Position numbers: made by a program. A stretch of DNA of 56,973 bases from Thermostichus sp. DRC_bins_24 (lineage in GTDB: Bacteria; Cyanobacteriota; Cyanobacteriia; Thermostichales; Thermostichaceae), in NCBI GenBank assembly GCA_039794845.1, contig JAUQVK010000094.1, positions 1 through 56,973 of the forward strand, written 5' to 3'. Shown here one piece after another: positions 1 through 6,000 of the stretch. Each line of letters begins with the position of its first letter. Position 1 is the stretch's first letter.

Positions 1-3000
1 CGGCGTAACCGGGGAGCCAGATGTTCTCCAGCACCGGGAAGGGTTGCAAACCAACCTGCATCGGGAAGTGCCGTGAAACAACGAGCGATCTTGAGCGTCA
101 GTTCCGTTCAGCGTAGGAGTAACGGCTTTAACTGACCGATCAAGGTTTGAAGAAAGATTATGGAAGGTGTAGTCGCACCGTCCTCTGAGGATTTGTTATC
201 GAGAGAAGTACAGGGTGGGGCAAGTCGATATGTTGGTGGACATCAAGTGTCACGCGATACATGGTCGTCTCCCACCCTGCCTCCCGGTCCTGAGGCTGAG
301 CTTACACCCTCTGCTTCAGTCCTGTCCCCCCATAAAAGCGATATAGAGATGCGATGTAGGAAAGAGAAACGAGAAGTGAGTAATGAATCCTCCCCCTCAC
401 TCCTCACTTCTCCATCCTCACTTCTCCACGGCCGGTGCCACGCTGTGAAGGGGGGGAGGGAGCTGTTTCAGCCTTACAGCCCTTTGCACCCAGTGCACGC
501 TAGTGCATTCGCCCATGGCAGCCTATAGGGCACTGCCAGTCACATGTAATAACTCCTGTAATAACTATGGAGGTTGAGATCTACCCTTTGGAGGGATAGC
601 CCTCCAGGCCCCGCAGAGCGGGAGGGTTGCTCCGCACCTCGCGGAGCGAGAACAGGAAGCGCAAGATCTGTCCTGGAAGACCCGCGCAAGGGCTGTAATG
701 GCAATGACTATACCACCTGGGCAAGTTTTGCCGTCCACTGCTCTACCAGCAGGATCAAGGTTGCTGCCACTGCTGTTCGATCATTAGCGTTCAAAGAAGT
801 GTAGAGGTCTCCATCCCCCAGAACCAGTTGAATGTCCTCCTCCGGCCAAGCGTTGGGGTGATCGGTGTGGGTGATCCCCACTACCATCGGGGCCTGGGAA
901 CGGCTCTGCATAAAGGCTTTGATCTCTCGTGCTGCTTGCATCTGCTTCGGCAGATGAGCCGGCACCAACAGGATGTAGCCGTGAGCACGGCGGATCAGCA
1001 GATCCCACATGAAGTCAAAACGGGCCTGCCCTGGAGTGCCGTAGAGATGAAGCCACATGTCATCTCCCAAACTCAGTCGACCAAAATCCATGGCCACCGT
1101 GGTGTTGGTTTTGAGCTGGGCCGTTTCGTCGGTAGCGCGACGGTCGGTATCTACCACCTCAATTTCGCTAATGCTACGGATAAAGGTGGATTTTCCCGCC
1201 CCCACAGGTCCCGTCACCACTACTCGCATAATGTTCGTGTGCCGCTGCATGGCTTTACTGCCCAACTAATTGGATACACCAGTCGCAATTAAGCGCTTGA
1301 AGAGAGCCTCACTCATGCCGGTTTCCTGTTGAACCGCGGAATAGGCTACCTCAATGTAGGCCTGCTCGATGAAGGAGAGGTCAATCATACAAATTTTGCC
1401 GAGGGATTCTCGTAACGCCTCCGGCTTACCTTCAGTCAGGATCCGTTTGCCCACCTCCTGTACCACGGTGGCCATAGCAGGCACCACATGTTGTGGGCCA
1501 ATCCCGATGCGTACATGCACCAAACCGATTTTCCAACGCCGCTGGGCATAAGCCTCTCCCCAGTCATCCATACCCGTAAACATCTCGGAAAACCAGTCCG
1601 TAAAAGTTGACACCAATCGCTCGCGATTGTGCTTCTGAATCACGGCTGCCATTTCTTCATCTCGATCCAGATAAGCATAAAAACAGCTGGCCATATCAGG
1701 AGCCAAGTGGGCCCCCCATTCAGCATTAGCCTTGAGAATTGCCTTGTCACTATCGGTGAGATCCGTACGACAGATCAAGATGGATAGCAACGCTTTTGGG
1801 TCAATAGCCATGGGAGCCTCTCAAATGTGATTGGGTGTGGTACAAAATAGTAAAAAAATAGTATTTGTCTATCTACTAAAACCATCTCGGTTCACTTTTC
1901 CTCAATTCAAGGGATTGGATCAGCATCAAGTTTCCCTGATCCTGAGGTCTAGAAATCGCTGAAAAACATTCCAGCTTATTTAAGAACAAGGGTAATACTT
2001 TCAGTAACGCGCTTAATCTCTAAAAATAAAATCCCCTGCTTAACCTCAGCACTGGCCAAGGTTAACAAAACAGCATCTGGTCCACAGCTGGTCAACACAC
2101 CGTAGCCTTTGTCCCCCTGCACGAAAATCCGCTCGATTTCCCCACGGACTAGTTCTTTACCAATTCGCTCTCCGAGAGACAACATGGCGGCGGACATGGC
2201 AGCGGTTCGCTCCTCATCCAGCCCCGTGGGTAAAACGGATGACAAAGGCAGCCCATCGGGGGTGACCACAGCTGCTCCTTGTACATCTGGAGTACTTGAA
2301 ACAAAATTCTGTAGGATGGGTTGAATCGAGGCGATGTTAACGGTCATAGCAACTCCTAAAAGAATGAGATCACTAACTGATTGATATCTCTATTAAATGT
2401 ATCTTCATTAAATGGGTGTTCAGAGCCCTTATCGGATCCCACGCAAAACCGAGGTAAGACGACTCAGCAAAGAAAGATTAGGGCTAGCTCCCAACTCTGT
2501 GGAGACCGGGCTTGTCTCCCTTTGGGATCCTCTAGAGAGCGGATAGTCCAACCCAACCGAAACCGGGATCAAACCTGGAACCTCCAGTAAAGATTTTTGC
2601 AGCAGGCCAACCTGATGAAGTCGAGTACAAATCTTACGTACTTCCAAGAGATCCTCCTTGAGCTTTTGACTCACAGAGTGAATTCGTAACGGGGAAGTAC
2701 TGAGAACTTCCAGAACCGACCATTCCAGTGGGGCCAACTTGACTAGAGGGATCTCTAAACTTGTGCGCTCTAGAACCTGATCGGGCTGAAGCAAGTTTAT
2801 CTCGCTTGAAGAGCTGTTTTGAATGAACCTTAGCCCCTCAATCACAACATCCATAATGCCTTTGCTATGTCCCGTCATTTCGCCGTAGGGCAACATAGCT
2901 ATGCCGTCGAATTCAAATCCTCCCTCCTCCAGAGCAAAAAGGGGATATACGGCCCGTCTAAGTTGCTGCCGAAATAAGCTGGCTAGGGTTTGGGCAGTAA

Positions 3001-6000
3001 TCAATCCCTGACGATGAAGGCATACTCCCAGGGGCTCATTGATGTCACAGCGAGAGGTAAGCTTATCCAGAACACGGTTGGACAGTAACTCCTCCTCCGA
3101 GAGCATCTCCGCCAGGCCCATCTTACGACCGGGTTCTCTGGCAGCAACCACCCGCCCCTGATAGATCCAGATGCGGTGAATGCCATTGGGGCTAGCTACG
3201 GATAGCTGACCCGTCTTGTGCCCCCGCTTTAGGACCTGCATTAAGTCCGTCAGAGAGAAATCCGATAGGTTACCGGTGATAGCCATTTCTGGTACTGTCC
3301 AATGCTGATTCCAGTATTGAAGGCGTGAAATAAAACACCAATAGTGATAATACGGATTAGCAGCTTACAAAAGTTGTCTTTGATGCTGGAAATGTGAAGT
3401 CTTGCTAAGGTGGCTTAACAGTGTTCGCTCCCTTGGGTCGTAAACTCAGGAATTCCAGGATTCTCTTTTCATCAGAGGGGTGAAGTTGACGCCTATCGTC
3501 TTGAAGACAAAATTAACCCAGTTGCACCTCCCAGGTGCACCAGCACATCAAATAGAATGTAGCTTTTAATACTTATCGAAATATTCTGCAGATTGCTTGA
3601 GGCACTGTCGGCGGTTGCTCCCATACCCCATCAGAGGATTTCTCTGTGCGGTCATCCTTGATAGTTCCTCTATCGGATGGATCTATTGGAGATTCGGTAG
3701 AGATTCCGCCCTTGCGCGGGTTTTCTATAGCAGGGATTATGCTTCCTGCTCCCCAGAGGGCCATCCTTCTAGAGAGGGGACTCAACTTCCACAGTTGTTA
3801 CACGTGACTGGCGGTGCCCTATGGACCGCCATGGGCGCAAGGGGCTGTAAACTGCACGGGAGCGACCTTCTCTATCCAACCTTTGGGCCGATGGTGACAC
3901 ACCGACTCTGAGCCCTCGCCTTAAAGAAAAGCTCAAGCATAAACAGCCCTCGAGATAATAACGATAGGATTGCCATGCAAGAATTCTGATGCAGAGAGTT
4001 TTGCTATGCCCCTGTCTTGGCTGGATTTCACCATTCGCCTGGGGGTTGCCTTTACCCTGGGATCCTTAATCGGCCTGGAGCGACAGTGGCGACAACGGAT
4101 GGCCGGCCTACGTACCAATACCCTGGTGGCAACAGGTGCAGCTTTGTTCGTCATGCTCTCGGTTCTCACCCCGGATGAGGGCAGCCCGACCCGCATTGCC
4201 GCCCAGGTGGTATCGGGGGTCGGCTTCTTGGCCGGTGGGGTCATTCTTAAGGAAGGAGCCACTGTACGGGGTCTGAACACCGCAGCCACCATCTGGTGTG
4301 CCGCAGCGGTGGGAGCTTTTTCTGGAGCAGGTTTTTTTCTGCAGGCCACGATTGGCGCCGGGGCGGTGTTGATCTCCAATGTTCTGCTGCGCCCCCTTGG
4401 GTATCGCATCAATCAGCAACCCCTGAAGGGCACAGAACTGGAATTGGTTTACGAGTGCTCCTTTACCTGCAAATGCCATGAGGAAGCCCATGTCCGAGCC
4501 TTGTTGCTGCAGGGGATAGCTCCCAGCCATTTGAAGTTGCGGGCTCTCCACAGCACCGATCTGGAAGAAAAGCCCGATTTGGTGGAAGTGGAGGCCGAAA
4601 TGGTAACCCAAACCCGCGATGACCAGTCTCTGGAGCAGATCGTCAGCCGCCTGAGCTTAGAACCCGGGGTGATCGCTGCCAGTTGGCGGATCATCGAACA
4701 AGAGTTTGGATAGGGATCCCTTAGAGCCGGCTGCGGAGATTCAGCGGATCAACTCCCAACCTGTCAACAGGGCAAAACCCAAAAACAGGGATCCCCCAAT
4801 CCAATGAACTGCTCTTTCGGAGATATGCGCTGCCAGAAATCGTCCCCCCAGCACCGCGACTCCCACCATCAGGCCGTGCCCAAGGGTTGCCCCTGCTAAG
4901 ACACTGAGTCCGGGATGGGCTGCGGCCAAAGAAATGGTTGCCACTTGGGTTTTGTCTCCTAGCTCTGCCACAGCCGTTAAGGTAAACGCTTCCGAGACAA
5001 TCGCCCAAGCTCCGCCTCGACCTGCCCCTTTTTCTTCTGCTTGCTCCACAAGTTTCAGGGCTTCTTCTTCCTCTTCCAGTTCCTGTTTGGGAGTCATGTT
5101 GTAGGCTTGCCAGAGCATTCTCAGCCCAAAAGCCACAAACACCCCTGTTGAGAGGATCTGCACCCAAACCGCCGGAAACAGGCTGAACAACAACTGCCCC
5201 ACCCCTACTGCCAGCAGCGTCATCATCGCCAAAGCCAGCCAAGCCCCCACAAAGACCCAACGACGTGGATGCCGCATTGCCAAAATCAGGGGGGTGAAAA
5301 AGGTTTTATCCCCAAGCTCCGCTACCGTCACCAGCAGCAAACTCGCCAAAAAACCGGCCCACATCTTGTTACCTCCAACCTCTCTTGTGTGCAGAAGGGG
5401 TCACACAGCAGAGCGAGGTTGGAGAAGTCCAAGAGACTCACCAAGCTCACCCCTGCGTGAACTCAGTGAAAGTCTCGTCACCAGAAAGCCAAAATCAGCT
5501 GGATTCTGTCTTCTGCACCGGGCTGTTGTTGCCAGTATGTCGATGCAGAGGGCGGCAAACCGCCTGACTACTCCCTTTCAGACCTGAATAGTAGCACGCC
5601 AAGCCACAACAGAGAGAAGGTGTTTCATCCTTGCCAAGGGATCCCGTTGCTGGGGTTGGAAGGTCTCTCAGAGGGGTGACGGGTTAGGCCCTTCATCCAT
5701 AAACAGTCCGCCTACTGGGCAACCGATGGGACCGAAAAAAGGACAGCTTAGGTAACCAGGGGAGTTGGGCTAGGTTGGATCCAGTTCTTGTGTGGGCTCT
5801 CGGCCGGTGGCCAATTCTTCTTCACAAGTTGCTCTGCCCGATATCCTCACCGGGTTGGAGGAGGCGCTGGGATCCCTGGCGTTGGGGCATGTCCAAGTGC
5901 AGGCGCGCGTTTCCGGACACCGTCTGCTGCTGCGCCTGGAGGGGGATCCCCTACCCGAGCCGGATCCCTTATTGGCCGCTCTAGCGCCTACGTTGGAACA

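Follow-up and report, generated by a model that had tools for sequence, protein, structure and literature searches.

A single-domain sensor globin encoded in a cyanobacterial genome is linked, far beyond chance, to the genes of a module formed by a PATAN protein, a Roadblock/MglB protein and an MglA-family small GTPase. Judged from sequence, an oxygen-type haem sensor devoid of its own output domain is encoded, in the window and in several bacterial phyla, next to the protein that regulates a Ras-like switch, which suggests a possible oxygen control of a bacterial G protein. To our knowledge, neither the output of single-domain sensor globins nor the input of most bacterial small-GTPase modules is known, and the pairing described here offers an answer to both, an output for the globin and an input for the GTPase. 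If true, it would constitute a gas-regulated G-protein switch in bacteria, extending over at least seven phyla. Our literature search, which covered sources other than the Tlr1989 structure paper, Makarova 2006 and the Vinogradov globin reviews, found no link of this globin family to MglA/MglB operons.

The window, i.e. the whole stretch of 56,973 nucleotides analysed (contig JAUQVK010000094.1 of Thermostichus sp. DRC_bins_24), carries the four genes on its minus strand. In transcription order they code for a DUF4388/PATAN protein of 285 aa (2429..3286; Pfam PF14332, E 4e-27), a Roadblock/LC7 protein of the MglB type of 123 aa (1976..2347; Robl_LC7 PF03259, E 2e-17), a single-domain S-family (sensor) globin of 181 aa (1266..1811; Protoglobin PF11563, E 3e-20) and an MglA-family small GTPase of the Group 5 type of 180 aa (708..1250; sequence motifs), separated by gaps of 81, 164 and 15 bp. 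Coordinates and Pfam matches confirm the survey's finding that the globin is flanked by Roadblock/MglB and MglA-like genes, with the PATAN gene first. Its designation as the fourth gene holds in that four genes are real, but in the direction of transcription the globin comes third, and is fourth only as an addition to a three-gene core (PATAN, MglB, MglA) whose sequence features are those of the catalogued MglA Group 5 system. The mglA gene, present as one copy only in the genome, has an alternative TTG start at 1265 that would add 5 aa. A simple promoter and terminator scan of the locus returned matches at chance level.

Group 5, as characterized by Wuichet and Sogaard-Andersen (PMC4316618), comprises clustered PATAN, MglB and MglA genes with TT in G2, GTPGQ in G3 and DG in MglB, and loci orthologous to the window cluster are tabulated there under this group. 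The window GTPase displays GPVGAGKST in G1, TT in G2 and GTPGQ in G3, and the window MglB the invariant D31-G32 of Group 2-5 MglBs; G4 reads THxD both in the window GTPase and in the consensus of 106 relatives, whereas the Group 5 criterion is [NT]KxD. The same table lists CYB_1482 as PATAN>PATAN>MglB>-MglA> and tlr1990 as MglB>MglA>PATAN>; we infer that the dash between MglB and MglA in the former row is this globin, a word with 0 matches in the searched text and supplements other than file 1. The window MglB is presumed from its sequence to be a GAP; its profile matches 7F8M (7e-31) and CvnB5 (1e-20) more closely than it does the MglB of Myxococcus (2.5e-5). No functional study of MglA Group 5 was found in the literature searched.

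The module had previously been read as a polarity switch, an interpretation that we abandon. The Myxococcus/Thermus switch (Group 1) is built from the same protein families, but where Group 1 has its arginine finger the window GTPase carries Thr, its G3 reads GTPGQ instead of TVPGQ, its published relatives belong to Group 5, and its similarity to M. xanthus MglA is weak (E 6e-5); no Rom or Frz genes lie near the window cluster. The actinobacterial conservons/AGPS (PMC13343842 and PMC13621833), a Group 2 relative, likewise combine a small GTPase, a roadblock GAP, a probable GEF and separate accessory sensors, but receive their input from a histidine kinase with CvnF/CvnE, whereas the window module has no conserved kinase: a CvnA-type histidine kinase is absent from the window cluster, and kinases lie nearby in some relatives only. 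In the PATAN protein, a PATAN domain (residues 4-157) is followed by a probable winged helix (about 160-240), and the C-terminal helix is conserved, its motif being kept among relatives. Its residues 160-263 resemble DUF742 (TM 0.52), a lead only, DUF742 giving no Pfam match. Since a hydrophobic-moment scan did not place the C-terminal helix among its top six windows, a role as membrane anchor is a guess only.

The globin was detected in 34 of the 401 sampled genomes of the phylum, and a copy lies beside mglB/mglA in 31 of these 34. Within ±1.5 kb of 29 other best-match loci, mglB and mglA occurred 15 times each, any of the three genes at 22 loci and none at 7, which bears out the proposed conservation of the link in cyanobacteria. 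Twelve of 41 cyanobacterial globins stand alone, no globin match was obtained in 9 of 39 genomes carrying this MglA, and in one genome (G314) all four genes decay together. One unpublished genome (G781, locus L232) was excluded from every count. The linkage extends to a second globin subfamily, represented by 78 loci in seven phyla, where mglB was found at 66, mglA at 58 and PATAN at 50 (3.5 kb) and 11 loci were stand-alone, and to a third, with mglB linkage in 6 of 7 new proteobacterial loci.

Many of the sampled genomes are kin, hence not independent, so that the neighbourhood might have been inherited without any function. This explanation, to which we assign a very low probability, is largely refuted by the shuffling of gene order (13 orders in the cyanobacterial clusters alone, with three subfamilies and seven phyla involved) and by the controls: linkage within ±1.5 kb was observed in 0/52 Deinococcota/Chloroflexota loci of other globin types and in 0/22 globin-coupled sensor loci (0/74 combined). 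Three Halothece-type loci combine a second-subfamily globin with a cyanobacterial-type MglB. Separately, Myxococcota-type tailed globins amount to 230 proteins; a metagenome scan of their context yielded one partial locus, and plasmids ordinary globin-coupled sensors only.

The assignment of the globin as the orthologue of Tlr1989 from Thermosynechococcus elongatus BP-1 was upheld by its match to PDB 8H17 (E 2.6e-67, residues 1-179; 60% identity) and by its modelled fold (TM 0.81/0.92, rmsd 1.4 A, pLDDT 90). Tlr1989 differs in being known as an isolated structure, reportedly from Mathur et al. 2023, and is said to have been crystallised with haem. The model also matches AfGcHK and HemAT, and its 3/3 globin fold, closest to globin-coupled sensor domains, together with His F8 and Tyr B10, identifies the protein, as far as sequence and model go, as an S-family single-domain sensor globin. 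The label of true protoglobin (Methanosarcina type) was rejected (separate clade, 100/100; fold E 0.08), the Pfam name Protoglobin covering a wider family. The globin differs from its same-genus copy by dN 0.23 and dS 1.4.

His99, the proximal haem ligand (F8; codon 1515..1517, minus strand), and the distal Tyr45 (B10; codon 1677..1679, minus strand) align with His99 and Tyr45 of AfGcHK. Among aligned stand-alone relatives, Tyr45 is kept in 83/84 and His99 in 84/84, in agreement with the claim of a retained proximal His. The globin-coupled sensors AfGcHK, HemAT and GsGCS share the fold and both residues, but are fused to a kinase, MCP or cyclase (PMC8697598), whereas the window globin ends in a short tail; AfGcHK Tyr45 is described as important for O2 recognition. 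The 181-aa ORF ends at its own stop with no output domain, and relatives measure 177-190 aa. The Pfam match stops at residue 154, leaving residues 155-181 (1269..1349, minus strand) as a conserved C-terminal tail, modelled as a helix-turn-helix at low confidence (70/62/42), in which E163, L170, R173 and L174 occur in 41/41 cyanobacterial copies; the 8H17 chain has 157 modelled residues out of 200. We propose this tail as a docking element.

The globin probably has MglB as its partner: MglB is the usual neighbour, the two are duplicated as a unit, a Roadblock-globin fusion occurs, and complex prediction lends weak support. The direct neighbours of 83 second-subfamily copies were MglB in 61 cases, PATAN in 23 and MglA in 6. 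Genome G833 shows the order ODP-MglB-globin-MglB-globin-MglB-X-MglA, with MglB-globin repeated. In the fusion P0091 (a 10-member cluster), a broad MglB profile matches the N-terminus (E 7.5e-13); its match in Pfam (18.5 bits) is below the cut-off, and profile-profile comparison with a narrow MglB alignment was insignificant (probability 3.6). A prediction of two globins, two MglBs and two haems scored 0.33 against 0.08 for the best control, a score in a band more often wrong than right unless the pair is likely beforehand, and gives no interface; its runs share at least 95% of contacts, with partner pLDDT of at least 86. Of 157 solved pairs, 116 came up to the same mark, as did 2 of 215 mismatched ones; those at 0.60 or under were only 18 of the solved pairs and both mismatches. 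An unrelated globin-Roadblock/LC7 fusion, HGbRL of Methylacidiphilum infernorum (PMC4476040), is a precedent: its authors speculate on signalling and mention a separate MglA/MglB-like pair, but its globin belongs to another group (HGbI/Vitreoscilla-like), and the fusion, called unique to one genus, lies outside an MglA operon.

The globin could instead feed the module via MglA or the PATAN protein, for instance if the conserved tail arginine acted in trans to supply the finger residue, which MglAs of Groups 2-5 are described as lacking intrinsically. R173, invariant in cyanobacterial copies, the globin stop codon 15 bp ahead of mglA in the window and a REC-DUF4388-globin fusion (P0001) fit this reading, which we consider unlikely: MglA adjoins only 7 of 124 copies as against 76 for MglB, MglB-globin pairs persist with no mglA nearby (L032, L133, L143, L157, L270), third-subfamily tails lack the arginine, and the fusion was downgraded since it comes from a single MAG and a related locus (L144) is unfused.

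With MglB as the favoured target, the globin would be a haem gas sensor subunit of the Group 5 module that tunes MglB GAP activity, a proposal with about an even chance of being right. The conserved, non-random link of the module with a stand-alone sensor-family globin is upheld, and a haem/oxygen input, as suggested by the survey's finding, is plausible, though not into a polarity switch. From the observed fold, haem-pocket residues, tail and linkage, we infer a chain of steps in which the globin would bind haem via His99, an O2, NO or CO ligand being stabilised by Tyr45 as in AfGcHK; it would dimerise as globin-coupled sensors do, and ligand binding would move helix H, which ends in a 25-residue tail in place of an output enzyme. 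The globin would then dock on the MglB dimer, raising or lowering GAP activity, and oxygen or redox state would thereby set the GTP/GDP state of MglA. The PATAN/winged-helix protein may act as a CvnC-like exchange factor or a membrane-bound effector. The pairing, with globin tail and MglB as its candidate contact, concerns three small proteins that are soluble and thermostable, one of which has already been crystallised.

Loss of the proximal His in the Roadblock-fused globin indicates that one lineage, at least, can do without haem. The globin might serve MglB as an adaptor that works without haem, or through haem/iron occupancy, and senses no gas, a reading for which haem-less RsbR globin domains and the Fe(II) sensing reported for ODP provide precedents; the near-invariance of His99 and Tyr45 in stand-alone copies and the haem reported in the Tlr1989 crystal make this improbable. 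There is a similarly small chance that the globin, co-expressed with the module, scavenges O2 or detoxifies NO, as an operon cargo or output with no signalling contact. Solo copies occur, none of 21 loci of the closest sister clade, that of Thermus-type genomes, is linked, and the hemerythrin and ODP of some clusters are possibly protective too, but the conserved non-catalytic tail, the fusions, the pairwise duplication with mglB, the co-decay and the lack of a reductase gene in the clusters argue against this reading.

Hemerythrin (3 loci) and ODP (4 genomes), both O2-binding families, occur within the same kind of clusters, as does a V4R-like protein placed by fold only, with no sequence match in Pfam or PDB; they may provide alternative or extra inputs to MglA/MglB. 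PATAN domains bind PilB1/PilC in Synechocystis, by analogy the sole, indirect route from the module to motility. Given the rest, our leading guess for the final output, albeit a doubtful one, is that the module controls motility by type IV pili. Bolder still, and rather unlikely, is a widespread, undescribed, kinase-free oxygen pathway, in which plug-in sensors (tailed globin, hemerythrin, ODP, V4R/TRAPPC3-fold) on a Roadblock dimer would gate a Ras-like GTPase, with the PATAN partner leading to the type IV pilus motor. Mat-dwelling bacteria that glide and twitch would thereby be capable of aerotaxis with no need of a chemotaxis array, single-domain sensor globins and Group 5 MglA would together gain a function, and the Roadblock/TRAPP-type control of small GTPases in eukaryotes would have a counterpart in bacteria.

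NtcA-activated promoters have the consensus GTA-N8-TAC with TAN3T about 22 nt downstream. The NtcA box claimed upstream of the operon is present as a GTA-N8-TAC palindrome (3559..3572, no strand), which lies 273-286 bp ahead of the first gene, but is weak evidence: TAN3T is absent 22 nt downstream on both strands as read from the sequence, the palindrome is missing upstream of the same-genus cluster, and NtcA regulation was rejected for want of conservation. Such a palindrome precedes 4 of 29 cyanobacterial clusters, where 2.8 would be expected, and 325 of these sites are found across the genome; the one in the window probably lies outside the conserved system.

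The pairing of the S-family single-domain sensor globin with a module of Roadblock/MglB (mglB), MglA-like GTPase (mglA) and DUF4388/PATAN genes is real and conserved. Among 401 genomes of the cyanobacterial phylum, 34 contained a match to the globin, 39 to the GTPase and 30 to both, and at least one module gene lay within ±1.5 kb at 22 of 29 other best-hit globin loci. Adding 60 wider regions, we found mglB or mglA no more than 3.5 kb from a globin copy in 31 of the 34 genomes; the exceptions are G128, where the globin stands alone, G168, with a 40-residue remnant, and G390, which keeps a truncated PATAN gene and a V4R gene. 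The cyanobacterial regions held 41 full globin copies, 12 solo, mainly second copies, and 29 spread across 13 gene orders; in genome G314 every gene of the set (globin, MglB, MglA, PATAN) is disrupted. The survey's finding of a conserved link is thus borne out, and it extends to other phyla. A second subfamily with about 30% identity to the cyanobacterial globin (78 loci, from the best 80 of 106 matches) occurs in Chloroflexota, Deinococcota, Rhodothermota, Pseudomonadota, Acidobacteriota, Verrucomicrobiota and Halothece-type cyanobacteria, where mglB (66/78), mglA (58/78), PATAN (50/78), all three (49/78) or none (11/78) lay within ±3.5 kb.

Of 49 places in the 351 sampled Pseudomonadota genomes, 30 were fetched; among these, mglB lay within 1.5 kb at 7 of 8 loci of single-domain tailed globins (which are kin; 6 of 7 once the centre genome, counted before, is set aside) and at none of the 22 loci of globin-coupled sensors. 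In Deinococcota and Chloroflexota, family searches (±1.5 kb, the best 30 loci of each phylum, with two repeats and an unpublished genome excluded) linked the module to 3 of 5 second-subfamily loci, and to none of 23 protoglobin, 21 Thermus-type, 3 coupled-sensor and 5 other loci. Beside these counts, mere hitch-hiking as the source of the pairing is very improbable. The Thermus-type clade, whose neighbours are dnaB-like and other genes, is sister to the cyanobacterial globin clade, so that the module link was either lost there or gained more than once.

Several features of these loci deserve mention. Both MglA clusters of G314 (L068, L089) are pseudogenised throughout. Solo second globin copies, with haem residues and tail intact, occupy two conserved sites (L034, L038, L041, L042, L056; L059-L062), next to UbiA/ArsA-type genes at one and to a TPP enzyme and a Ser/Thr kinase at the other. 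The Thermus-type globins (L188-L208) are module-free, have a different tail, often lie next to dnaB-like genes and sometimes form tandem pairs, and seven Chloroflexaceae loci (L094, L100, L101, L106, L111, L112, L114) encode one or two proteins of phosphonate-binding fold after mglA.

In the window, the operon lies on the minus strand and comprises, in order, ORFs for DUF4388 (285 aa, 3286-2429), Robl_LC7 (123 aa, 2347-1976), the PF11563 globin (181 aa, 1811-1266) and the small GTPase (180 aa, 1250-708), separated by 81, 164 and 15 bp and each present in one copy in this genome. ORFs and domain matches agree with the coordinates and gene identities previously proposed, except that the globin, described as the fourth gene, is the third. 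The NtcA box also noted before the operon does exist (GTAGCTTTTAATAC, 3559-3572), but we gave it no weight as regulatory evidence, since 325 such sites occur genome-wide, none was found before the same-genus cluster, 4 of 29 clusters have one 5' against 2.8 expected, and neither strand has a TAN3T 22 nt downstream. It sits between the operon and a divergent mgtC/SapB gene, which, with a GDT1 cation antiporter gene, borders the operon (3970-4713 and 4741-5364). On the 3' side of mglA, positions 1-720 are a patchwork of short dispersed repeats, probably MITE- or IS-derived, with many genomic copies (296 blastn lines for three queries; repeat 149-476 recurs on contigs C26 and C89 at 96% identity).

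The best match of the globin was 8H17 Tlr1989 (E 2.6e-67), followed by the globin-coupled sensors AfGcHK, GsGCS and HemAT, and its model (pLDDT 90) superposes on 8H17 with an rmsd of 1.4 Å; true protoglobins form a clade apart in the tree. Tlr1989 reportedly contains haem, as Mathur et al. are said to have found in 2023. His99 (84/84) and Tyr45 (83/84) are kept among aligned relatives and align with His99 and Tyr45 of AfGcHK, the proximal ligand and a residue that matters for O2 recognition, respectively (PMC8697598). Comparison with the same-genus copy gave dN 0.23 and dS 1.4. The Pfam match ends at residue 154; beyond it, residues 155-181 make up a helix-turn-helix tail, with E163, L170, R173 and L174 each invariant (41/41) in the cyanobacterial set; a profile search found a comparable tail terminating many other 180-aa globins. 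Model confidence drops along the tail (70, 62, 42) and 157 of 200 residues are modelled in the 8H17 chain, which suggests that the tail may be mobile in isolation. Beside such conservation, a role as protective cargo seems unlikely. The window globin (1266-1811) has C43 where 32/41 have His, M166 where 37/41 have Trp, and two residues missing before helix E relative to the family.

TT in G2, GTPGQ in G3 and THxD in G4 are common to the GTPase and the consensus of 106 relatives. Section 15 of PMC4316618 describes Groups 2-5 of MglA as devoid of the arginine finger present in Myxococcus and Thermus MglA; by its G2 and G3 motifs the GTPase belongs to this Group 2-5 type, which lacks the finger, and its similarity to those two proteins is only E 6e-5. 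The supplementary table of the same source lists cyanobacterial Group 5 systems that include PATAN>PATAN>MglB>-MglA> (CYB_1482) and MglB>MglA>PATAN> (tlr1990), and its text and supplements, supplementary file 1 excepted, do not mention a globin. Locus L031 has the CYB_1482 arrangement with the globin occupying the dash; the module core was thus already catalogued and the globin passed over. We found no paper on this globin family in MglA/MglB operons within the open-access literature, subscription papers being outside the scope, and the available parts of the V4R-Bet3 and Asgard papers do not mention the globin-MglB/MglA module. By profile, MglB is nearer to 7F8M and to CvnB5 of Streptomyces than to its Myxococcus counterpart. 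In the PATAN protein, the C-terminal part has a structural likeness to DUF742 (TM 0.52), the domain of CvnC, which may be a lead towards CvnC. MfpC, a CvnC homologue, is described as a likely GEF in PMC13343842.

Gene adjacency points most often to MglB as the partner: the immediate neighbour was MglB in 61, PATAN in 23 and MglA in 6 of 83 second-subfamily copies, and MglB in 15, V4R in 7, PATAN in 4 and MglA in 1 of 41 cyanobacterial copies, while genome G833 has the order ODP-MglB-globin-MglB-globin-MglB-X-MglA. A Roadblock domain (E 7.5e-13 by broad profile; Pfam and hhalign weak) is joined to a second-subfamily globin in protein P0091 and its 10-member cluster, a fusion unrelated to HGbRL, which is the globin-Roadblock fusion of Methylacidiphilum infernorum (PMC4476040). 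A complex prediction, one job with two MglB, two haem and two globin chains in which MglB was the only partner tried, gave weak support (0.33 versus 0.08 for the best control), with contact agreement of at least 95% between runs and partner pLDDT of at least 86. Of 157 solved pairs 116 reached the mark used, as did 2 of 215 mismatched ones; only 18 of the solved pairs and both mismatches did so at ≤0.60, and these counts are a rough guide only given our own alignments and ligand. The most likely mechanism, with about an even chance, is a relay in which the haem-bound globin would take up a gas ligand, the change would travel along helix H into the tail and on to the MglB dimer, and MglB GAP activity towards MglA would be adjusted as a result. 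In one MAG a complete module is followed by a REC-DUF4388-globin fusion (a related locus is without the fusion); direct action on MglA or PATAN instead is held to be improbable. The proximal His is gone from the P0091-cluster globin and invariant in the 84 aligned relatives, and a haem-independent or iron-status adaptor appears a minor prospect beside the proposed relay to MglB. Protein P0094 (a 2-member cluster) joins a Ser/Thr kinase to a tailed globin.

Other candidate inputs adjoin the module. Of the cyanobacterial loci that carry this GTPase, 43 were fetched, picked around globin or GTPase hits and hence biased towards the globin; mglB was present in 39, accompanied by the globin in 27, V4R in 21 and either or both in 36. 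The V4R gene also occurs in six of the nine genomes that match the GTPase and not the globin. A hemerythrin gene lies directly 3' of PATAN in three globin clusters (L046, L049, L069), and a gene for ODP, an oxygen sensor in chemotaxis (PMC7666581), precedes mglB in four proteobacterial genomes. Three unrelated O2-binding families thus adjoin one module, which favours an oxygen or redox theme. In Synechocystis, PilB1 and PilC are bound by PATAN domains, which guide phototaxis (10.1101/2021.06.11.447907), so that pilus control is a plausible output by analogy; Group 2 relatives instead regulate metabolism and gyrase protection.

The V4R protein (155 aa, no Pfam hit, V4R/Bet3/TRAPPC3 fold; L051:2851-3321 and 21 other cyanobacterial loci) places a TRAPP-like fold, a Roadblock protein and a small GTPase in one bacterial operon. 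ODP-MglB-globin-X-MglA clusters occur at L268 (G833:C40), L270, L271 and L272, protein X being 209 aa long with no Pfam hit and a C-terminal helix of the PATAN-protein kind. A lone MglA copy (L088:4892-5563, G002:C10) ends a run resembling, by eye, nif-accessory and feoAB genes. Elsewhere in the window, a 232-aa ORF (7885-8583) immediately following an amidohydrolase-like gene has two ExxH motifs and looks ferritin-like by eye.
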